Positions 5,920 through 44,511 are shown, numbered from the stretch's first letter. The stretch is DNA of 64,000 nt from Croceivirga sp. (GCA_028284285.1 JANQSA010000022.1:7741-71740); one strand, 5' to 3'. A program made the numbers and translations. Notes: generated from the letters alone by a model not told the origin.

Positions 5920-6297
5920 TTACAAAAACGTCAAAATTCTCCTCGTTACTTTCCTAAAACTGTGATCAATTTCAGAATTATCAAACCGAATAACTTTTAA
6001 GCCATAGCTTTCAATGACTTTAGTACGATCATCATCATATTCTATATTAGATCTATGTTGCCTACCATCCAACTCGATTACCAACATAGCACTATGACAA
6101 TAAAAATCAAGTATATAATCCTTAAAGGGGTGCTGTCTTCTGAACTTGAGACCTTTTGGTCTAGTGCGTAAAAAACTCCACAGTTTTTGTTCTTGTGGGG
6201 TCTGAGTCTTACGTAAAATACTGGCGAATGCAAATTTATCTGCTTGTGCCCCAGCATGCATTCCCTCATTCTTTAACAAGTTTTTCCCTTTTTGCAT
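5920..6297 (-). CDS. DUF559 (Vsr-like) endonuclease-domain protein
   Basis: LWSFLRTRPKGLKFRRQHPFKDYILDFYC...VIELDGRQH pattern is typical of DUF559 proteins. Confidence 0.8.
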   Translation of the reverse strand: MQKGKNLLKNEGMHAGAQADKFAFASILRKTQTPQEQKLWSFLRTRPKGLKFRRQHPFKDYILDFYCHSAMLVIELDGRQHRSNIEYDDDRTKVIESYGLKVIRFDNSEIDHSFRKVTRRILTFL

Positions 6298-6493
6298 TTA
6301 AAGAATTTATTCAAACTGCTCTTACCTGTAAGGTAAAAAAGAAGATAATTGGAAGACTTCTTAAAGTTCAAAAAAACCGCACCCTCCAGGGAAGGGGAAA
6401 TGGTTTTTTCGGCCTAGGCCAGTGAAGAAGCCGTACTCCACAAATCTTGCAGCAGGACTTTTTTGTTCATGCTACAAAGTTACAAAGCAGCGG

Positions 6494-7240
6494 TTATTTT
6501 TCCAGTTCCACCCGTATCTTAAACGCTTCCGGGTCTTTCATCATCTCAAGAAAATTCACTTCGTAGATCATGGTCTTCCCATCCATTGAAAAAGTTGCCC
6601 CTTCCACATTAGTGTTCTTCACCCGTCTGGGAAAATGGTATTTAAAGGTATAGGTAGAACCGGAGAGAAACATTTCTGATCCTTTTAAACTATCCAGTCC
6701 CTTTGAGAAAAGGGCCTCATCAATGATCTTGGTGGTTCTTGTAAACGTATTTTCGGAGAACGAATAATTTACCTGGGTAGTAGGTTCCTGCGATGGCATG
6801 TCTGCAGATGGTCCACCACCTCCCGGCTTAGGACCCAAAGCGCTGGCTTCCTGAAAGGCGTTGAAGGCATCGTTTACTTCGGACACATTTTTAAACTCGC
6901 TGAAAAGGTCAAAACTCAAGGTTTCATTTTTCGAATCCATAGCCATATGTAGGCTGAAAGGTTCCAGTTTTTTTAGTTTTTCCTGCTCTTCTAAAGGGAG
7001 CTTGGAAATACTATCCGCTTTTTCCTTGAAAAAATCTTTGAAGACAATAGTGGAATCCATCACCTCCTCTTGCTGTGTGCTATCTTCCATAGAGGCCAAA
7101 GCGGCCATCATTTCATTACCGTCAAAATGAATGTTTAGTTTTCCGGAACCGTCTTTGTTAAAATGAATTTCTTCGGTAAAATTACATGCCACGATCAGGC
7201 CACAGATGATCACTGCAGCTAATAATTTGAGTTTTCCCAT
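6494..7240 (-). CDS. Hypothetical lipoprotein
   Basis: 248-aa ORF with signal peptide and Cys (IVACN). No recognised domain. Confidence 0.6.
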   Translation of the reverse strand: MGKLKLLAAVIICGLIVACNFTEEIHFNKDGSGKLNIHFDGNEMMAALASMEDSTQQEEVMDSTIVFKDFFKEKADSISKLPLEEQEKLKKLEPFSLHMAMDSKNETLSFDLFSEFKNVSEVNDAFNAFQEASALGPKPGGGGPSADMPSQEPTTQVNYSFSENTFTRTTKIIDEALFSKGLDSLKGSEMFLSGSTYTFKYHFPRRVKNTNVEGATFSMDGKTMIYEVNFLEMMKDPEAFKIRVELEK

Positions 7241-19184: not shown

Positions 19185-20927
19185 TTACACCGTAAAGCTG
19201 ACCCTGTTGTCTTCGGTTTCCGTATAGCCGGAAGCAGCAATAGTATCTACAAAGCGATAAGAGGCTGTGGCGGAACCTGTGGTAAATTCGACGAGCACAT
19301 AGCCCCGCTGACTCGCATCAAAATATTGCAATCCGTCTATCAGCAAGGTAAACGCCTGTTCAATACCGGCAATGGTGGCCGGATCTGAACCAAAAATACC
19401 TTCAAATCCCGGAGAGGTCACGGAAGGACAGGCAAACTCCTCTCCTATTTTGTTTCCATTGATGTCTGTAAGGATATTATGCCATGCGTTATGGGTATCT
19501 CCCGCCAAAACCACAGTATTCTTGCCATTTAAAATAGCATAGAGTTGCTCTCTTTCCGCAAAATAGCCATCCCAGGCATCCAGGTTATAGGGTACCTGAG
19601 CTGCAAGTCGAGCCGATTCTTCTTCGGTCAGGGAGGGATCCCCCGCCAAAGCTCTGGCTTTTAATGTGGAGAGATCTACAATTGCAGCCTGTAATGCTCC
19701 CAGTGTTTCGGGCGACGTATCCCCTGCGGCCACTTGCCCGATCAGGATCAACAACTCTGCGGGAACGGTCATAGTCCCCATCAACACCTGCTGTCCCAAT
19801 ACTTGCCATTGGGCGTTGCTCCCTCCTACGGCACCAGCAGTCCAGGCTAGTTGTTCCGGCCCCATCAATGCCCTGTTGGGATCTCCCAGGGCAGCTGCAA
19901 ATCCGTTAAAATCAAAAGCGCCATCATCGCCAAAGAAATCCGTAAAACTCAACTGTCTGTCCCTACCCACAATTCGGGTATCTAACATCACCAGGTTCAC
20001 AAGGTTGCCGTATTCAAAATTACGATAGATGATCCCTTCGGTATCCGTACGGACCGGAAGATATTCCCCATGAACCTTAATAGCACGCTGCAAACGCTCC
20101 TGATAATCCCCTTCGGAAGGATCGTGATTTTCGGCTCCCTCCCTGTAGGCATCATTGGTGATTTCATGATCGTCCCAGACCACAATAAAAGGTTTTTTCT
20201 GATGTGCCAGTTGTAAACCTTCATCGGTTCTATATTGCCTGTAACGCAGACGATAATCCTCAAGGGTTAAAATCTCAGTGACGGGATCGTGTTCCCTTCC
20301 CAGAGGAGAAGTGTTTTCGTTGGTACCGTAACCCCCTACTTCATATTCGTAAATGTAATCGCCCAGATGTAGAATAATATCCGCATCACTTTTGGCCATA
20401 GCATCGTACACATTGAATAACCCGGTTGGGTAATTACTGCAGGAACAAAAGGCTACTTTAAGGCTTGCTACAGCGGCACTTGACTCCGGAAGCGTTATGG
20501 TTTCCCCAACCATGGAATATGCTCCCAAATCCTTTTGCATAAAACGGTAATAGTAGTTACCGTTAGATGCCAATCCTGTAACATCCTGTACAATAGTAAA
20601 ATCGTTCTCAGCGGAGGCATACTGCATTCCTTCCTTCACTACATGATTAAAGTTAGCGTCTGTGGCTACCTGCCAGTCAATTTGAATAAATTCATTTACC
20701 TCATCCGCGGTAGGAGTAAATCTGGTCCAGATGATCACCGCCGCGGCAATAGGGTCAAAACTGCCTACGCCATGCAAAAATCTTGGGATACCGTCCCCAT
20801 CATCGCCATCCCCCAGAAAATCGTCCAGCTTGTTGCAAGCCGCCAATTGCGAGGTAAGTATGACCCCTCCGGAGGCCAGGATTGATTTTGCCAAAAAGGC
20901 CCTTCTTGTGTGTATTTTTCGTTCCAT
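19185..20927 (-). CDS. phoD: Alkaline phosphatase D family protein, Tat-exported
   Basis: Twin-arginine signal HTRRAFLAKS. LHLGDYIYEY and VVWDDHEITND metallophosphatase motifs of PhoD. Confidence 0.9.
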   Translation of the reverse strand: MERKIHTRRAFLAKSILASGGVILTSQLAACNKLDDFLGDGDDGDGIPRFLHGVGSFDPIAAAVIIWTRFTPTADEVNEFIQIDWQVATDANFNHVVKEGMQYASAENDFTIVQDVTGLASNGNYYYRFMQKDLGAYSMVGETITLPESSAAVASLKVAFCSCSNYPTGLFNVYDAMAKSDADIILHLGDYIYEYEVGGYGTNENTSPLGREHDPVTEILTLEDYRLRYRQYRTDEGLQLAHQKKPFIVVWDDHEITNDAYREGAENHDPSEGDYQERLQRAIKVHGEYLPVRTDTEGIIYRNFEYGNLVNLVMLDTRIVGRDRQLSFTDFFGDDGAFDFNGFAAALGDPNRALMGPEQLAWTAGAVGGSNAQWQVLGQQVLMGTMTVPAELLILIGQVAAGDTSPETLGALQAAIVDLSTLKARALAGDPSLTEEESARLAAQVPYNLDAWDGYFAEREQLYAILNGKNTVVLAGDTHNAWHNILTDINGNKIGEEFACPSVTSPGFEGIFGSDPATIAGIEQAFTLLIDGLQYFDASQRGYVLVEFTTGSATASYRFVDTIAASGYTETEDNRVSFTV

Positions 20928-29045: not shown

Positions 29046-29062
29046 CCATGAACCAGGTGCTT

Positions 29063-29113
29063 TTGTCATTCCGCACCTGTCTAACGACAGGCGGGCGGGC
29101 GCAGGAATGACAA
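29063..29113. repeat. REP-like palindromic element
   Basis: ttgtcattcc ... ggaatgacaa terminal inverted repeat, enclosing an inner cctgtc/gacagg stem and a GC-rich core. Confidence 0.6.
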
Positions 29114-29158: not shown

Positions 29159-29605
29159 ATGAAAGCGATTAACATTTTGTTCATCATTTTGCGCCTTTTT
29201 TTAGGAGGGATGATGATATACGGAGGATTCCAAAAATTCCAAAAGCCCATTCCTACGCCCATAGAAGTGGTGGAAAAAGCAGAAAAGTTTAAAGACCCGG
29301 GTAAGGAAAGTACCCTGCAAAAGATCCTGTATATCAGCGGGAGCAAGCAGACCGGGTATTTCTGGCAGTTACTGGGGATCGGCGAGATCCTGTTTGGGCT
29401 ACTGGTGCTACTCCAGTTTACCAGCTTTGTGGGTGCTATTTTTCTGCTGCCCATTACGCTTAATATCTTTTTATTCCATGTGTTCCTGGAAGCGGATGAA
29501 ATGCCGGAACTGTTACAAACAGGGGCCTTATTCTTTATTAATATCGCCTTGGTGGTAAAAGAACGGGAAAAATGGCAGACGCTGCTTTGGATAAAACCGA
29601 TTTAG
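29159..29605 (+). CDS. DoxX-like small membrane protein
   Basis: 148 aa with 4 TM segments. The N-terminal LRLFLGGMMIYGGFQKF pattern resembles the DoxX family. Confidence 0.6.
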   Translation: MKAINILFIILRLFLGGMMIYGGFQKFQKPIPTPIEVVEKAEKFKDPGKESTLQKILYISGSKQTGYFWQLLGIGEILFGLLVLLQFTSFVGAIFLLPITLNIFLFHVFLEADEMPELLQTGALFFINIALVVKEREKWQTLLWIKPI

Positions 29606-29635
29606 TTTTCAGGTTACGTTTGAGTTAGTGTATTC

Positions 29636-29664
29636 AAAAACCGGGGGTAACCTCCGGTTTTTTT
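29636..29664 (+). terminator. Rho-independent terminator after the DoxX-like gene
   Basis: aaaaa-ccggggg-taa-cctccgg-ttttttt: a 7-bp stem (one G-U pair) with an A/T extension and T7 tail. Confidence 0.75.
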
Positions 29665-29834
29665 ATGTCAACAAGGTTAACATGACATCTTTGGAGTAAT
29701 TTCTTAGGTCGTTTTTACAGGAAATCCCCAGTTTTTTTACGGGTTTTCTGTAGTGTTCTTTGGTTGTTGTCCATTATATTGGAAGACTGACTTATCCCCC
29801 AAAAAACCTATTTCAGAAAAAGAGATTATGGTTT

Positions 29835-29842
29835 TATGTTTG
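29835..29842 (+). promoter_or_regulatory. Candidate -7 box (TAnnTTTG) for the Abi-like gene
   Basis: tatgtttg lies 31 nt upstream of the ATG at 29873. Confidence 0.35.
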
Positions 29843-29872
29843 AAGTTTCTACATGTTAAACCCTAACACCAA

Positions 29873-31036
29873 ATGACAAAAGCGATAGAAAAGATAGCTT
29901 GGGCATTTCTACTGCTTGGTATGGTCATTCTTTCCTATCTGCTTATAAAATCTTCAGTTGATGGATTTAGTATTTCAATAAAAAAAGATACCAATTATGA
30001 GGTAACTGGACAATTTGGAGACTTTGTTGGCGGTGTAATTGGAACCTTTTTCGCCCTGGCAGGAACTTTACTCATCTATCTATCTTTTAGAGAACAAAGC
30101 AACGAAAACAAACGAAACGCATTCGAGTCTTCTTTTTTTGAAATGATGAAGATTTACAGAGATAACGTTAACGAATTAAGGTACAGAAAATACAAGGACA
30201 AAGACCATATTATCTATGAGAACAGACAGGTAATTAGAGAGATTTTTGCAGAATTCATTGAATGCTACAGAGAAGTAAGAAAGTTTTCTAACTCAAAAAA
30301 GGTAGAAGATTATCTAACGCCAAGATACGCTGACAAACTAAAAAAAATAAAGGAAAAAATAAACCCTAAGATAAATCTCATCGAGCTAGCAAGAATTGAT
30401 ATAGCATATTCAATAGTTTTCTACGGTATAGGAGTTGAAGGAGAGTCAATAATCCGAAAAAATATTCAAAAAAAGTACAATCGTTACTATTACTACAAAC
30501 TCTTATACTTTATAAAATTAAAACCAAAAAAATCTAATCAAAGTAGGTATTTTTTGTGGCAACAGGCGCGAAATATGAACCTTGAGGATTTGCATAGATT
30601 GGTCGATGAACTTTATGAGAACAGAAAGAATCCAAGAAAGACGGATCATCTTTCTGAGCTGGCTAAAAGTTTTAAAATGCATTTAAAATATGAAAAGTAT
30701 TACGGTGGTCATCAGTTTAGGCTTGGTCATTATTTCAGACATTTATACCAAAGTTACAAATACTTAAACGATCATAAGGATTTAACTCAGGATGAAAAAT
30801 ATGCATATGGAAAGTTATATCGTGCACAACTATCAACTTATGAACAAGCTATACTCTTCATAAATAGTATATCCACCATTGGAATGAAATGGGAGTTTAC
30901 ACCAGAAAAATTAAACTCACCTTTAATAACTACTTATAACTTAATCAAAAATTTACCGGGAGAGCATCTTTATGGAATACGGTACAAAACTTATTATAAA
31001 GGCGTTGACTATGAAACAGATGAATTACTGAAATGA
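29873..31036 (+). CDS. Putative phage abortive-infection membrane protein (putAbiC-like)
   Basis: Two N-terminal TM helices, the second preceded by GQFGDFVGGVIGTFFALAGTLLIYLSFREQ. From memory this matches the family annotated 'putative phage abortive infection protein'. Lys/Tyr-rich soluble C-terminal domain; very AT-rich gene. Confidence 0.6.
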   Translation: MTKAIEKIAWAFLLLGMVILSYLLIKSSVDGFSISIKKDTNYEVTGQFGDFVGGVIGTFFALAGTLLIYLSFREQSNENKRNAFESSFFEMMKIYRDNVNELRYRKYKDKDHIIYENRQVIREIFAEFIECYREVRKFSNSKKVEDYLTPRYADKLKKIKEKINPKINLIELARIDIAYSIVFYGIGVEGESIIRKNIQKKYNRYYYYKLLYFIKLKPKKSNQSRYFLWQQARNMNLEDLHRLVDELYENRKNPRKTDHLSELAKSFKMHLKYEKYYGGHQFRLGHYFRHLYQSYKYLNDHKDLTQDEKYAYGKLYRAQLSTYEQAILFINSISTIGMKWEFTPEKLNSPLITTYNLIKNLPGEHLYGIRYKTYYKGVDYETDELLK

Positions 31037-31181
31037 AACTAGTGCTGACAATGATCACGATAAATTGTGGTTTGAACAGAGCTCTTGCCATTACTATGAG
31101 TTCTTAGCCGATTTCTAAATGCAATGATTCTTTAGGTAATTATGTAAATATAGCTGAGATTTTAAAAGATAAATTTAAAGT

Positions 31182-32258
31182 ATGGATCAAATCAATATAG
31201 AACAACCATTACTATTCAACTTCGATGACGAAACTGAAAATGAGAACATCGATTTCAGATACGTAATAACGAGTTATGGTGCCGATTATCCAGTCGATAG
31301 CCTAATGAAAAGAATAAAGGACAAAGTCGTTTTTATCCCTCCATTCCAAAGGCAATTTGTATGGAACATTAACGAAGCATCCAAATTCATTGAATCATTG
31401 ATCTTGGGGTTGCCTGTGCCGGGAATTTTTTTATCAAAAGAAAAAGACACCAATAGATTACTTGTGGTAGATGGACAACAAAGGCTAATGAGTTTGTACT
31501 TTTTTTATACCGGTTATTTCCAAAACACTCCCTTTAAATTACAGAATGTACAAGAGGATTTATTAGGAAGAACTTATAGCACATTAAAATCCCCTGACAG
31601 AATACGATTAGATGATTCCATAATACACGCAACTATTGTAAGGCAAGACGAACCTGATAAAGATGAAAGCAGTATATATCAAATTTTTGAGAGGCTAAAC
31701 TCTGGTGGAAGAGATTTAAAACCTCAAGAGATCAGGGCTTGTATATATTATGGAGAATTTAATGAATTACTAAATGATTTAGTAAAACTCCCCTCTTGGA
31801 GAGCTATTTTCGGAAAAAAGTCCGATATAAGACTAAAAGAGCAAGAGTTGATTTTAAGATTCCTCTCTTTACTGTATGGCAGACAGGAATACAAAAAACC
31901 TCTAAAAGGGTTTCTGAATTCTTTTATGGCGCAACATCAACACCTAAAAGGTATTGGTGGGGAGGAGTTTGCCGAAACATTCAAAAGTACATTCGATTTC
32001 ATAGTTAGAACCATCGGCACAAAACCATTTAGGATAAGAAGGAATTTAAATCTTGGAGCATTTGATTCAATATCCATAGCAGTTGCCGAGAGATTAAAGT
32101 CGGGAGTAATTCAAAATCGTAAGAAATTTGTTGAAAAGTATAATGATTTAGTTGATAATTCAGAGTTTATTTCTATTGTTCAAGGGGGGACATCTGACGA
32201 AAAAAATGTTGAAGCCCGTATTGGCTTGGCAATTGAGGCTTTTAAAGAAGTTGAATAA
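31182..32258 (+). CDS. Stand-alone DUF262 (ParB/Srx-like, GmrSD N-terminal type) protein, no fused nuclease domain
   Basis: IPPFQRQFVW (aa 52-61), VVDGQQRL (aa 95-102) and IFERLNSGGRDL are DUF262 hallmarks. I see no DUF1524/HNH-type His motif in the C-terminal half. Confidence 0.85.
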   Translation: MDQINIEQPLLFNFDDETENENIDFRYVITSYGADYPVDSLMKRIKDKVVFIPPFQRQFVWNINEASKFIESLILGLPVPGIFLSKEKDTNRLLVVDGQQRLMSLYFFYTGYFQNTPFKLQNVQEDLLGRTYSTLKSPDRIRLDDSIIHATIVRQDEPDKDESSIYQIFERLNSGGRDLKPQEIRACIYYGEFNELLNDLVKLPSWRAIFGKKSDIRLKEQELILRFLSLLYGRQEYKKPLKGFLNSFMAQHQHLKGIGGEEFAETFKSTFDFIVRTIGTKPFRIRRNLNLGAFDSISIAVAERLKSGVIQNRKKFVEKYNDLVDNSEFISIVQGGTSDEKNVEARIGLAIEAFKEVE

Positions 32259-32722
32259 TGGGTCTCTATAAGTTAAAAATTTATGAGAGACAGTTAGATA
32301 ATCTCTTTGCAGAAGTTTCACATGTACAAGAAGGTGAAATAAACAAAGCTCACCTCACTCGTTATTTATGTGTTAGAACTTCTGGTTACCTTGAAAATGT
32401 TACTAGAATTCTCATTGCTAATTTTTGCGATGGTACTTCTCCACAACCTATAAATAACTACATTGTTAAAAGAACAAAATATATGTCGAATTTAGATTAC
32501 AAAAGATTAAAAGGTCTGCTTTCGGAATTCGATTTAAGATGGAGTTCAGATTTTGAAAATAAGATAACGGATCAGCAAAAAAGCTCTCTTAACTCGGTCA
32601 TCTCGAATCGAAATAATATTGCACATGGGAATCAAGATAGTATTACTTACCGTGATATGGTAAACTACTATCGCGACATAAAGGACGTTTGTAATATTCT
32701 AGTCGATATAATTAAGAAATAA
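32258..32722 (+). CDS. Small HEPN-like protein (Rx4H motif), coupled to the DUF262 gene
   Basis: Its ATG at 32258 shares one nt with the DUF262 TAA (TAATG). Predicted all-alpha, 154 aa. SNRNNIAHGN gives R118-x4-H123 near the C-terminus, where HEPN motifs usually sit. Confidence 0.6.
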   Translation: MGLYKLKIYERQLDNLFAEVSHVQEGEINKAHLTRYLCVRTSGYLENVTRILIANFCDGTSPQPINNYIVKRTKYMSNLDYKRLKGLLSEFDLRWSSDFENKITDQQKSSLNSVISNRNNIAHGNQDSITYRDMVNYYRDIKDVCNILVDIIKK

Positions 32723-32803
32723 GATTTGGGCACTTCAAATTGAATCCAAATCTCCTCAACCTCGCTGCGCGAAATTGGCAACTTCGCGCTTAACCCGGTA
32801 AAT

Positions 32804-32925
32804 GAGATTTCTCCCGCCAGAGGCGGGCAGGCGGTCGTTTCGCTTCCTCGAAATGACTAAGAGTCTCCATAATTAGCTTTTACTATCAAAAGTCATTTCA
32901 CACCACCAGAGGCAGGTAATTTTAC
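32804..32925. repeat. Dispersed palindromic repeat family, cluster 1 (one full plus one partial inverted copy)
   Basis: gagatttctcccgccagaggcgggcaggcggtcgtttcgcttcctcgaaatgac (32804-32857), then an inverted partial copy starting gtcatttca at 32892. Confidence 0.7.
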
Positions 32926-33045
32926 TGGCTGTAGACAGGCCAAACCGTGGTAGGGGATGCGAAAATGATCAAAAGATTACGTTTTAGGTATTGGATGTTG
33001 TGTTGTCAAAAACTATCTTAGAAGCAACAGCCAACTTCTCCAAAA

Positions 33046-33912
33046 ATGATCTTTATTCCCAAGTTGGCAATAATTAAAAAAATGACCTTTAAAAGCATCC
33101 CATCATTCAATCATTATGTGCATGCACAGCCCCCCAGGCATGATTGGATAGATATAGGTGCCTACCCGGAAGGCTTTCGCTTATCTTCGCCTAAGGTGTA
33201 CCCCAATTTCTATCGGATCTCTATTAAATACGGTTTTGAAGATGGTAATAGTAAAGGCTTTATGTATTTCTCAAGTCCTAACAATCCTCTGCAATGGGAA
33301 ACGGAAAAGCCATGGACGGGATATTACATTCAGCTGACGGAAGATGTTATTTCCAAATACCAGCATCTGGCATATTCTTTCCTTACCTATGGGTTACATG
33401 AACCTCTCTATTTGGAAAAAGAAGAAGAGGAGGTCATTACCTGCTTATTTAAAGATGCGCTTATGGAGTATACCAGGGACAATTTTTCCATGGATCTTTT
33501 GGTGGCGTACTGCAATCTCATGTTTGCCCATATTGCCCGATTCTACGAAAGGCAATTCGGGGAGCGAAAAGAGGAATATAACCAATTAGTGAATGGTTTT
33601 TTCCGCTTACTGAATGCCTATTACACGCCAATTCAGGATAAGGGTAATGTTCAACCTACGGTAAAATACTTTGCCAGCAGCTTGAACGTAACGCCCAATT
33701 ATTTGAGTGATGTTATTAAAGTTCATACCGGCCAGTCTGCGCTGGAACATATCCATCAACATATTGTTGAAGTGGCCAAATCCTCGCTGATCCAAAAAAA
33801 ATCTTCCATTTCCGAAATTGCCTATCAATTGGGGTTTGAATACCCGAATTACTTTTCCCGCCTGTTTCGAAAAGTCACCGGTGTCTCACCTACCCATTTC
33901 CGCAAGCTGTAA
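33046..33912 (+). CDS. AraC-family transcriptional regulator
   Basis: C-terminal double HTH (YFASSLNVTPNYLSDVIK...ISEIAYQLGFEYPNYFSRLFRKVTGVSPTHFRK). Confidence 0.85.
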   Translation: MIFIPKLAIIKKMTFKSIPSFNHYVHAQPPRHDWIDIGAYPEGFRLSSPKVYPNFYRISIKYGFEDGNSKGFMYFSSPNNPLQWETEKPWTGYYIQLTEDVISKYQHLAYSFLTYGLHEPLYLEKEEEEVITCLFKDALMEYTRDNFSMDLLVAYCNLMFAHIARFYERQFGERKEEYNQLVNGFFRLLNAYYTPIQDKGNVQPTVKYFASSLNVTPNYLSDVIKVHTGQSALEHIHQHIVEVAKSSLIQKKSSISEIAYQLGFEYPNYFSRLFRKVTGVSPTHFRKL

Positions 33913-34002
33913 TTTGTATCCTTTTTGCCTTGATTTGTCTTCATAGGGTCCGGTAAAACTGGACGATATTTACGCTACGGTAAGCAATAAACCCTTTACA
34001 TC

Positions 34003-35022
34003 ATGGCATTTGAAAAAACACTGGAGTACACCATTGACAATACCTTAAAAAGTAGGATGGGCGAAGCGGCTTTCAACAAAGCCCTGGAGCAGCAGAAAAC
34101 CATTTCAGAAGAGGAATATGGGACCCTTAAGTACCTGGCGGAATTTGCGGTACGACCCATGTTTCGGACACCGGTGCACAAAACTCCTGCCGATCATGGC
34201 ATGGACAAATGGGAGGATGTGTTTTTCCCATCAAGCGATGGAACCCCATTGGAAGGATGGTATATCCCTTCTGTCCAGGGACCATCAGATAAACTCATTA
34301 TTATCAACCACCCCATGCCGATGAGTCGTTCTGGCTTTACAGGGCATTTTGGAGCGCCATTTTCCGGTGTGGACACAATGGAAATTGATTTTGTCGCCCA
34401 TATGGGGCATCTCTCAAGAGCCGGTTACAACATCCTGGCGTATGATTTGAGAAACCACGGGAATAGCGGAGCAGCCAATGGTGGTATTTGCGGGATTGGC
34501 CGATATGAATGGAGAGATTGTGTAGGAGCTAAAATGTATGTGGATGCCCATCCCGAGCTCAGTAAAATGCAGGTTGGGTTATATAGCCGTTGTACCGGTG
34601 GCAATGCACAATACGAAGCCCTGTACCGCCGTCCTGAATTGTTCGAAAACATAAAATGTTTCTTTGGACCTATGACGGTTTCTATGACGGCCCTGATGAC
34701 ATCCTTTGCCGGTCTTATGGGATTGGACAAGTATATGGAGCTAATGGATCTGGAACAAATAAAGTTAGGCGGTTTTACCAATGGTGAAATGCACCCTCAG
34801 AACTATTCCCACGCAGTAAAAGTCCCTTACTTTATGGCAGAAGTGCTGGATGACATCTGGACCGATAACCCCAGGGATGCCCGGGAGATCTTTGATGCTA
34901 TCCGTTCAGAAGAAAAAGAATTGTTTTGGATTGAAGGAACTAACAGAAGGTTTGACGGATATAACTATTTTGGGGTTTTTCCGGAAAAAATGATTGCCTT
35001 TTTTGACAAGTACATGAAATAG
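34003..35022 (+). CDS. Alpha/beta-hydrolase-fold protein
   Basis: The order of the HPMPMSRSG, nucleophile-elbow-like YSRCTGG and C-terminal acid/His regions fits an alpha/beta hydrolase. Substrate unknown. Confidence 0.6.
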   Translation: MAFEKTLEYTIDNTLKSRMGEAAFNKALEQQKTISEEEYGTLKYLAEFAVRPMFRTPVHKTPADHGMDKWEDVFFPSSDGTPLEGWYIPSVQGPSDKLIIINHPMPMSRSGFTGHFGAPFSGVDTMEIDFVAHMGHLSRAGYNILAYDLRNHGNSGAANGGICGIGRYEWRDCVGAKMYVDAHPELSKMQVGLYSRCTGGNAQYEALYRRPELFENIKCFFGPMTVSMTALMTSFAGLMGLDKYMELMDLEQIKLGGFTNGEMHPQNYSHAVKVPYFMAEVLDDIWTDNPRDAREIFDAIRSEEKELFWIEGTNRRFDGYNYFGVFPEKMIAFFDKYMK

Positions 35023-35126
35023 AACGAACCCAGGGCAGCTTGGAATACCAGACAAAAAAGCACTAAACACCATTAGTGACCTGCCCATGGTAAGTCCGTT
35101 CGCCAAGGTTTGTCTACCCTGGGAGT

Positions 35127-36716: not shown

Positions 36717-36815
36717 AAGCATGTTTCTACTTTATTTGCTCTCCGCTGTCGTTTGATGGCACTTGTCGGTACCCCCAACCGATGTATCATCTATTCCAAA
36801 AGGATTTAAATGGGT

Positions 36816-37171
36816 GAGATTTCCCGGTCGCTTTGCTTCCTCGAAATAACTATTGTGAATTAATTTGTACCCCCAGAGTCATTTCGAACCCGCTAAAGAC
36901 GGGCAAGCCGGATATTGCGGTGCAATAAGAGCGTGAGAAATCTCATCTTTTCAACGGCGTAATTATTCTAGAAATAGATTTCTCCCACCGGAGGAGGGCA
37001 AGCAGTCGCTTCGCTTCTTCGAAATGACTAAAAGTTTTCGTATTATGATCCTCTCTAAAGTCATTTCGAACCGAATGTAATGAGTGTGAGAAATCTCAAT
37101 AACCTGAGATGAGATTTCTCCCGCCATAGTCGGACTGGCAATCGTCGTTCCGCTCCGTATGATGAAATGAC
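36816..37171. repeat. Dispersed palindromic repeat family, cluster 2 (5 copies in alternating orientation)
   Basis: Units are bounded by GAGATTTCTC...TCGAAATGAC or the reverse complement: 36816-36850 (degenerate), 36878-36944 (inverted), 36976-37028, 37060-37097 (inverted), 37111-37171 (degenerate). Confidence 0.75.
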
Positions 37172-44232: not shown

Positions 44233-44511
44233 AGTCCTATCGAACCCACCAGAGTCGGATAAATTTACCTGCCGTAGGCAGAGAACATGAGAAATCTAAT
44301 GCTATACACTACAATCATTCGGGAATAGATTTCTCCCACCGGAGGACGGCAAGCAGTCGCTTCGCTTCTTCGAAATGACTAATAGATGTTGGTTCGTGCT
44401 TTCGCAGTCATTTCGAACCGAATGTAATGAGTGTGAGAAATCTCAATACCCTGAGATGAGATTTCTCAATCGTCTCCCGATAACTATCGGGATTCCTCAT
44501 GTCGAAATGAC
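44233..44511. repeat. Dispersed palindromic repeat family, cluster 3 (4 copies, alternating orientation)
   Basis: Copies at 44233-44298 (inverted, degenerate), 44327-44379, 44407-44444 (inverted) and 44458-44511 (degenerate). 44327-44379 and 44407-44467 are near-identical to 36976-37028 and 37060-37120. Confidence 0.75.

Follow-up and report, generated by a model that had tools for sequence, protein, structure and literature searches.

The window analysed here, a stretch of 64,000 nucleotides from Croceivirga sp. (GCA_028284285.1 JANQSA010000022.1:7741-71740), contains three adjacent genes that stand out as an AT-rich islet at 29650-32760, downstream of a gene for a DoxX-like protein. They encode a putAbiC-type membrane protein (gene 1), a DUF262 protein (gene 2) and a HEPN protein (gene 3). 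The question raised by this locus is whether they constitute a single anti-phage system whose gene combination has no name, as the original prediction suggested, or an assembly of parts that are already known. We find that the islet is very probably a small composite defence island of two autonomous modules, an AbiC-like single gene and a PD-T4-2-type pair, placed at a variable site after DoxX. The predicted defence-type content is thus borne out by the PD-T4-2-type pair and by an AbiC-named Pfam family, while the idea of an unnamed combination is not, since genes 2 and 3 are of the known PD-T4-2 type, gene 1 belongs to putAbiC, and the modules occur separately elsewhere.

The islet is clearly delineated by its base composition. 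The AT-richness had been proposed from four single 60-nt lines, and recounting these gave the same fractions of G and C (GC), of 0.30, 0.30, 0.467 and 0.617. A 500-nt sliding profile is not flat, with values of 0.30-0.356 over 29500-32750 and of approximately 0.42-0.50 on both flanks. Among all 3.1-kb stretches within the 64 kb the segment 29650-32760 is the minimum, with a GC of 0.330 compared with 0.441 for the remaining window; this lies about 3.8 standard deviations (SD) below the mean, and the runner-up has a value of 0.395. The codon composition deviates too. GC at third codon positions is 0.30, 0.30 and 0.27 for genes 1, 2 and 3 respectively, more than 4 SD lower than the 47 other open reading frames (ORFs) of the window (0.476 ± 0.042, with a minimum of 0.358).

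One system or two modules

All three islet ORFs share the + strand. Gene 1 (29873-31036, 387 amino acids) is separated by a spacer of 145 nt (31037-31181) from gene 2 (31182-32258, 358 amino acids), the stop codon of which overlaps the start codon of gene 3 (32258-32722, 154 amino acids) as TAATG. Gene 3 is translationally coupled to gene 2. One could imagine that the three genes are an integrated system in which the pair signals to the AbiC-like protein, or is anchored by it. They are adjacent, they lie on one strand and are alike in their AT-rich composition, the spacer between genes 1 and 2 has no predicted terminator-like site on its + strand, and the same arrangement is present in one other assembly (L001; the loci compared carry L numbers). 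The DNA of L001 is however 100% identical, from the same strain or species, and so does not constitute an independent example.

In every independent context the modules are found apart. Close relatives of gene 1 (74-84% identity) occur in four contexts that contain no DUF262 or HEPN gene (L058/059, L071, L072 and L158), and more distant relatives in a decayed P2-like Enterobacter prophage and on three IMG/VR contigs also lack the pair. Altogether there are about nine contexts with gene 1 only (L058/059, L063-067, L071-074, L155-157 and L158); a metagenome scan for gene 1 gave at least four loci. Conversely, close relatives of the pair (82-86% identity, with the same overlapping genes of 358 and 154 amino acids) are found without gene 1 at four unrelated chromosomal sites (L062, L159, L162-166 and L167-168), and at L167 these two genes alone are inserted between housekeeping genes. 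Distant pairs are carried by plasmids of E. coli, Salmonella and Hymenobacter (L068-L070), and by lambdoid and P2-like prophages of E. coli (L160-L161). A gene-1-like ORF was found at none of 80 IMG/VR loci with gene 2 relatives in profile-based viral scans; viral contigs searched with the single sequences of gene 1 and gene 2 gave no match. The pair therefore lacks gene 1 in all of the roughly 88 contexts examined, comprising the 80 viral loci and at least 8 further sites.

The DNA itself tells the same story. Homology to gene-1-only loci extends over 29872-31040 and that to pair-only loci over 31189-32722, stopping at the ends of the ORFs of each module, and the 145-nt spacer is conserved with neither and is unique to the window. 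The nearest relatives of each module (74-86% protein identity, and approximately 72-77% at the DNA level) lie at unrelated sites in other genera and lack the other module, and both cassettes are AT-rich in every host (GC 0.28-0.35), including those with genomes of 45-49% GC. In the light of these comparisons a single integrated system is extremely improbable. The sequences indicate instead two independent modules, with gene 1 being genomically autonomous, although gene 1 may be co-transcribed with the pair as no terminator is predicted between them, which is a point against their separation.

Horizontal acquisition of the islet is also supported. We examined its site in related bacteria with the TonB-dependent receptor encoded upstream as query, taking a single genome for each species; this gave 56 loci in Croceivirga, Flagellimonas, Croceitalea, Maribacter and related genera of the Flavobacteriaceae, with a best receptor match of 87% protein identity. 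The block of TonB-dependent receptor, HmuY and DoxX genes is conserved across these relatives, and genes 1, 2 and 3 are absent from all 56 loci. Together with the deviant composition and the presence of related cassettes at unrelated sites in other genera, this argues for the horizontal acquisition that had been proposed, and the alignment of the locus across related Flavobacteriia that had been recommended finds the three genes conserved at this site in none of them. The content that was read from the sequence, putAbiC, DUF262 and an Rx4H HEPN, is likewise found by Pfam in each of the three proteins as described below, and no NCBIfam model matches any of them. Being made of two module types that are already catalogued, the islet does not qualify as a new system.

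The DUF262 and HEPN pair

Gene 2 is a protein of ParB-DUF262 type. Its sole Pfam domain within 358 amino acids is GmrSD_N/DUF262 (E = 1.5e-28), and in a search with PADLOC profiles the best match is to NsnA (E = 2.1e-68, profile positions 43-382 of 385), together with PD-T4-2_A (E = 2.2e-59, 199.3 bits, profile positions 49-362 of 363). Four E. coli homologues score 132-187 bits on the PD-T4-2_A profile, all below gene 2. The motifs QRxxxW (residues 56-61), DGQQR (97-101) and FxxxN (169-173) are invariant in two family alignments. A structural model of the protein (predicted local distance difference test score, pLDDT, of 81.6) finds its best matches within the PDB in BrxU (7p9k, E = 5.8e-5) and SspE (6jiv), followed by ParB/Noc CTPases. 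The C-terminal domain is helical and ParBDB-like. No DUF1524 or HNH nuclease was found in any islet protein by Pfam, and the C-terminal half of the gene 2 model is all-helical.

Gene 3 is a minimal HEPN protein that matches Pfam HEPN_RiboL-PSP (PF18735) with E = 1.1e-20 and 74.9 bits, where the cut-off is 28.4. Its catalytic motif RNNIAH is intact (R118-NNIA-H123). Across 31 partner proteins R118 and H123 never vary, and all of these proteins retain R-[N/H/K]-x3-H. Essentially all untruncated relatives of gene 2 are followed by a tightly coupled downstream gene, with a spacing of -52 to +6 nt; the partner is a recognisable HEPN protein in all the closer relatives, and a divergent gene of 215-235 amino acids in remote ones. 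Both the NTP (nucleoside triphosphate)-binding DGQQR center of gene 2 and the RNxxxH site of gene 3 are intact.

These properties correspond to those of PD-T4-2, discovered in E. coli ECOR65 (Vassallo et al. 2022, PMC9519451). Table S1 of that study lists the system as 'DUF262, HEPN', and Table S3 assigns component A to PF03235 and component B to PF18735 (97.8%), PF18737 and PF18731 by HHpred. The Pfam ranking for gene 3 has the same order of PF18735, PF18737 and PF18731. Here too a DUF262 protein of around 350-390 amino acids with no nuclease domain precedes a small RiboL-PSP HEPN protein with an Rx4H motif in the order A-B, and the two genes span 1,541 bp, compared with 1,540 bp in ECOR65; the spans of four related E. 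coli pairs are 1,596-1,771 bp, with none of 1,540 bp. Alignment of profiles for gene 3-type partners and E. coli B components using hhalign gave a probability of 98.8% with E = 4.6e-17 over 139 columns. An operon of ParB and RiboL-PSP HEPN genes had already been noted in a 2013 survey of HEPN proteins. The pair differs from E. coli plasmid homologues of the family in sequence, with identities of about 35% for A and 26% for B, and in its setting, being chromosomal and integrase-free in a marine flavobacterium where the E. coli relatives reside in prophages and plasmids. From sequence and gene order we would assign genes 2 and 3 as a PD-T4-2-type pair.

A number of points count against this assignment. 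The PADLOC model PD-T4-2_B gives no match to gene 3 at E ≤ 1, and because it misses gene 3 PADLOC would not call PD-T4-2 here; the PADLOC profile search that had been proposed succeeds for gene 2, with PD-T4-2_A and NsnA, gene 1 has no match, and gene 3 has none to PD-T4-2_B. The ECOR65 system itself was compared by its published description (Tables S1/S3 and span), and the sequence alignments used related E. coli pairs. The evidence for phage protection comes from the E. coli PD-T4-2. Finally, the literature searched contains no mechanistic paper on PD-T4-2, and for this reason a model leading from sensor to RNase is drawn by analogy. As for the first point, the PD-T4-2_B model also misses the B components of E. 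coli L069B and Hymenobacter L070B, and it detects L068B, L160B and L161B only weakly, at 4e-4, 2e-4 and 1.4e-8, whereas Pfam places all the scanned E. coli and Hymenobacter B components in PF18735. The PADLOC model is narrow, and under-detects the family.

The strong match of gene 2 to NsnA brings to mind Menshen (NsnABC; Millman 2022; Li et al. 2025, PMC12065111), with which it shares the NsnA-type architecture of ParB-DUF262 plus a ParBDB-like domain and the proposed role of sensor. Unlike in Menshen, gene 2 is accompanied by neither an NsnB ATPase nor an NsnC inPIN-effector, its partner being instead a HEPN protein of 154 amino acids. No ATPase gene is present in 29665-33045, and gene 3 is followed not by a third gene but by a host repeat and then by the AraC gene. 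Menshen was rejected for gene 2 on account of the missing NsnB and NsnC.

The N-terminal ParB-DUF262 NTPase fold and its motifs are shared with GmrSD, BrxU and SspE. In those proteins DUF262 recognizes modified DNA and activates a nuclease through NTP hydrolysis, and a sensor role for DUF262 is described in the literature; the equivalent domain senses modified cytosines in GmrSD and BrxU, and phosphorothioate DNA in SspE. By analogy, gene 2 might sense phage DNA, and an NTP-dependent conformational switch might then license a dimer of the gene 3 HEPN protein to cleave cellular or phage RNA, either tRNA or mRNA. Translation would stop, and the infection would be aborted. Unlike GmrSD, BrxU and SspE, the pair lacks a DUF1524 His-Me nuclease and has as its effector a second protein, an RNase-type HEPN, so that the target is probably RNA and not DNA. 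There is a precedent for a HEPN RNase activated by a nucleic-acid signal of infection, the type of mechanism that we suggest here, in DARNA, an ssDNA-activated tRNase that cuts tRNA anticodon loops (bioRxiv 10.64898/2026.02.22.705581). DARNA differs from the pair in being a single protein of 456 amino acids from another HEPN family, with its own C-terminal ssDNA-binding domain, a dodecameric structure and no DUF262 partner. The identification of DARNA with PD-T4-2 was considered and rejected, as DARNA is PD-T7-3.

The same domains could be read in another way, whereby genes 2 and 3 would be a DNA-targeting system resembling type IV restriction, or a toxin-antitoxin pair of HEPN toxin and DUF262 antitoxin that serves to stabilize the locus and not to sense phage. 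The type IV enzymes GmrSD and BrxU are the best-known bearers of DUF262, and the fold match agrees with this link. Two overlapping genes, one of them for a HEPN toxin, are a typical toxin-antitoxin layout, and the pair is common on plasmids beside PemIK and VbhA. DNA cleavage is however unlikely in the absence of a DUF1524/HNH or other DNase domain from either protein. Moreover, the homologous E. coli system confers protection against T4 in its native host as well as after transfer; on removal of PD-T4-2 from ECOR65, plaquing by T4 was restored, and protection extends to E. coli K-12 carrying the cloned system (PMC9519451). Whether protection occurs by abortive infection or direct immunity is given in a figure and not in the text of that paper. 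Toxin-antitoxin function and defence are also compatible, so this reading is more a sub-variant of the defence model than an alternative to it, and as a separate explanation we consider it improbable. A phage-sensing PD-T4-2-type pair remains our preferred assignment.

Relatives of the pair exhibit further variation. At L070 (2485-4050), and in the proteins P0049, P0051, P0062 and P0082 among others, an N-terminal MTaX1 domain (PF20296, 'methylase-associated X1') is fused to DUF262, with the HEPN partner still following. Such fusions fit the variable N-terminal sensor add-ons described for NsnA. In one marine lineage (L162-L166, around 6641-7009) a gene of 122 amino acids for an IS200/RAYT-like Y1_Tnp protein lies directly after a pair that is 85% identical to gene 2, and may provide a route by which the pair cassette is mobilized. 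The chromosomal E. coli pairs (L160, 2840-4556, and L161, 2916-4686) are in prophages, where one interrupts a lambdoid capsid gene region and the other is flanked by the cI and int genes of a P2-like prophage.

The AbiC-like gene

Gene 1 matches Pfam putAbiC (PF16872) with E = 3.4e-18 and 66.4 bits (cut-off 22) over residues 280-364. Its hydropathy plot has hydrophobic stretches at about 4-30 and 50-73 and nowhere else, and an AlphaFold2 model (pLDDT 90.7, predicted template modelling score 0.81) places helices at 2-29 and 42-100. The soluble part of around 315 amino acids is mostly helical, with the putAbiC domain at its end. The family is compact, with 633 matches, and the subfamily of gene 1 itself forms a tightly conserved clade, with members of about 390 amino acids across Bacteroidota and Gammaproteobacteria. 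Between gene 1 and its relatives in Enterobacter, Klebsiella, Vibrio and Pseudomonas the identity is 58-61%. The invariant patches of the family alignments include the His/Arg-rich YYGGHQFRLGHYFRH and RAQLSxYEQ.

Gene 1 resembles lactococcal AbiC (AbiC/P group; Durmaz 1992; PMC13064643) in its membership of PF16872, in being a single gene, and in having two N-terminal transmembrane helices followed by a soluble domain. A 2026 review describes the two N-terminal transmembrane helices of lactococcal AbiC, and states that AbiC and AbiP are without a structure-based functional prediction; AbiC lowers the production of major capsid protein, while AbiP binds RNA and requires its membrane anchor (PMC13064643). 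By analogy with AbiC and AbiP, gene 1 might combine sensor and effector of abortive infection in one membrane-anchored protein. The two-pass anchor would hold the conserved soluble domain, with its YYGGHQFRLGHYFRH patch, at the inner face of the membrane, and upon infection the protein would block the production of late phage proteins or damage the cell.

Several results tell against a defensive role of this kind. The model of gene 1 has no fold match in PDB or BFVD at E ≤ 0.001, and the protein has no match in PADLOC. It has no BLAST-detectable similarity to lactococcal plasmid genes; a tblastn search of 72,556 plasmids with the full protein gave no Lactococcus match at 1e-3, nor did the domain alone match a Lactococcus plasmid even at E ≤ 10. 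On the sequence evidence, the connection with the lactococcal prototype would be through the Pfam family alone. In one study, moreover, no protection was obtained with an 'AbiC-like' lactococcal protein that is 38% identical to AbiC. It could be argued from these observations (no PADLOC match or structural analogue, no detectable similarity to the prototype, and an AbiC-like gene inactive against the phages tested) that 'AbiC' is a mere Pfam label, and that gene 1 is a mobile membrane protein with another function, such as superinfection exclusion by a prophage or a housekeeping accessory role.

On the other side, the Pfam match is strong, the topology is that described for AbiC, and the gene persists as an AT-rich single-gene cassette in hosts of 45-49% GC. 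Its company is also typical of defence islands, comprising a P2-like prophage in Enterobacter, a HigB/helix-turn-helix pair with a transposase, an AAA_15/21 ATPase, and the PD-T4-2-type pair in the window. Superinfection exclusion would in any case also be anti-phage. A role outside defence is therefore rather unlikely, and we favour an AbiC-like defence protein. A more speculative version, tentative but somewhat less doubtful, is that the gene 1 clade is a mechanistically new single-gene defence effector that is AbiC in name only, with a soluble domain of new fold in which YYGGHQFRLGHYFRH and RAQLSxYEQ form a new catalytic or ligand-sensing center. That gene 1 might in addition cooperate locally with the adjacent PD-T4-2-type pair is a weaker suggestion.

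Two parallels for gene 1 were discarded. The His/Arg motif (R283...H290) was considered as a HEPN Rx6H and dropped, as there was no match to a HEPN family and no fold match. A paper on SadR and 'Abi_C' concerns the C-terminal HEPN domain of AbiJ, which belongs to another family.

In Enterobacter hormaechei and related assemblies (L063-L067, gene at 6001-7179) a homologue with 61% identity to gene 1 lies in the decayed P2-like prophage, between the Phage_tail_S/GpR genes and those for baseplate V/W/J; the index of the assembly collection lists this very protein in 166 blocks. Immediately upstream of several close homologues (L058, 1593-2450; L059, 1300-2157; L072, 4015-4845) there is a same-strand ORF of 276-285 amino acids with no Pfam match. 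This ORF, which the window does not have, could be a partner gene in some lineages.

The site after DoxX and its surroundings

The left edge of the islet is marked by the intrinsic terminator of DoxX (29636-29664, + strand), as had been predicted. It comprises an inverted repeat, AAAAACCGGGGGT/ACCTCCGGTTTTT at 29636-29662, followed by a run of T, and belongs to the host side of the boundary. Repeat finding and folding were used here; the terminator scanner overlooked the hairpin, probably since its A/T arms absorb the T tail. The centroid energy of the hairpin is -16.4 kcal/mol. The terminator is retained in the closest relative (L002), where DNA homology covers DoxX and the terminator, ends exactly at 29664, and restarts at 35124 with the genes for peroxiredoxin, a flavodoxin-like protein and HxlR. 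The intervening content is 5.46 kb in the window and 1.34 kb in L002, which has two unrelated small genes, one GNAT-like and the other of 160 amino acids, in place of 29665-35123. In two other loci (L007 and L020) about 630 nt separate HmuY from the peroxiredoxin gene. The second of these belongs to a Croceivirga metagenome-assembled genome (MAG; whole-genome shotgun prefix JANQQQ) in which the site between TonB/HmuY and peroxiredoxin genes is empty and the pair is present on another contig (L062). A look-up of the exact DoxX protein returned a single identical Logan contig, and this adds no independent evidence.

Between the terminator and gene 1 lies an AT-rich leader (29665-29872, + strand) across which GC falls from 0.43 to 0.31. 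It is specific to the islet, sharing no homology with either L002 or the loci that have gene 1 only, and we infer that it holds a promoter. By eye, TATGTTTG at 29835-29842 fits TAnnTTTG, which we take to be the Bacteroidetes -7 consensus.

On the right the situation is different. A repeat cluster had been proposed as a boundary element, and while the repeat at 32800-32925 is real and adjoins the right edge of the islet, it is a dispersed host intergenic element and not part of the cargo. Its 24-nt core GTCGTTTCGCTTCCTCGAAATGAC recurs at 36827, 37005 and 44356, where no matches were expected by chance. Four copies in the window can be aligned (32800-32925, 36800-36900, 36990-37110 and 44340-44460), two of them in tandem 3' of the HxlR gene, and one is present in the relative L048 at 19250-19380. 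It is because the copies are dispersed in this way that we assign the repeat to the backbone. The unit of around 120-140 nt has internal inverted repeats and the core GAGATTTCTCCC..GAGG.GGGCA.GC.GTCGCTTCGCTTC.TCGAAATGACTAA ... AGTCATTTCGAACC, has no Rfam match, and looks like a repetitive extragenic palindromic (REP) or miniature inverted-repeat transposable element (MITE). As GC is already about 0.44 at the repeat (32800-32925), the right end of the cargo is near 32722-32760.

Beyond the repeat are an AraC-family regulator gene and an alpha/beta-hydrolase-like gene (33046-35022, + strand), identified by Pfam matches and of host-like GC. They lie within the segment 29665-35123 that is missing from L002, and were found downstream of DoxX in none of the 56 relatives; a look-up of the exact AraC protein gave no match. 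The description of the islet as lying between core-like genes is thus correct for DoxX on the left, but not for AraC on the right, which is not conserved there in the 56 relatives.

Between the HmuY-like gene and DoxX, at 29058-29112, there is another kind of intergenic element, GC-rich and palindromic (GTCATTCCGCACCTGTCTAACGACAGGCGGGCGGGCGCAGGAATGAC). It has the short motif AGGCGGGC.GGCG in common with the repeat at 32821-32833.

No integrase ORF is present among the ORFs of the window, and scans of the 64 kb found no tRNA and no Rfam family, in agreement with the original prediction. The sole candidate for flanking direct repeats is a weak gapped match of about 50 nt between 29590-29641 and 32967-33013 (p of about 0.004, post hoc), which we rejected as an att site because it is gapped, weak and chosen post hoc. 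The features of a classical integrative genomic island, an integrase, a tRNA target and direct repeats, are therefore not seen in the window. The islet was inserted without a recognizable integrase, directly after the DoxX terminator.

Several relatives have AT-rich dips of their own immediately downstream of DoxX or HmuY. In Flagellimonas ochracea (L011, 14540-15946) PADLOC finds PDC-M48A and PDC-M48B, both full length. A Croceivirga MAG (L012, 14005-17025) has PDC-S60, a fusion of Metallophos, AAA_14 and nSTAND_NTPase4 in 1006 amino acids, and F. meishanensis (L010, 17078-17920) has a DUF2971/PDC-S31-like protein. Comparison of these sequences suggests that the position after the TonB-receptor/HmuY/DoxX operon is a recurrent integrase-free hotspot for defence genes in Croceivirga and Flagellimonas-like relatives, and it could be mined for further cargo.

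The main consequence of the analysis is to close the question of an 'unknown three-gene system', as both modules are of described kinds. Within the PD-T4-2 family the pair is a clean minimal example from the Bacteroidota, with proteins of 358 and 154 amino acids, no fusions and intact catalytic motifs. The clade of gene 1 is widely transferred and strongly conserved and has no structural analogue, and it is a reasonable target for mechanistic work.

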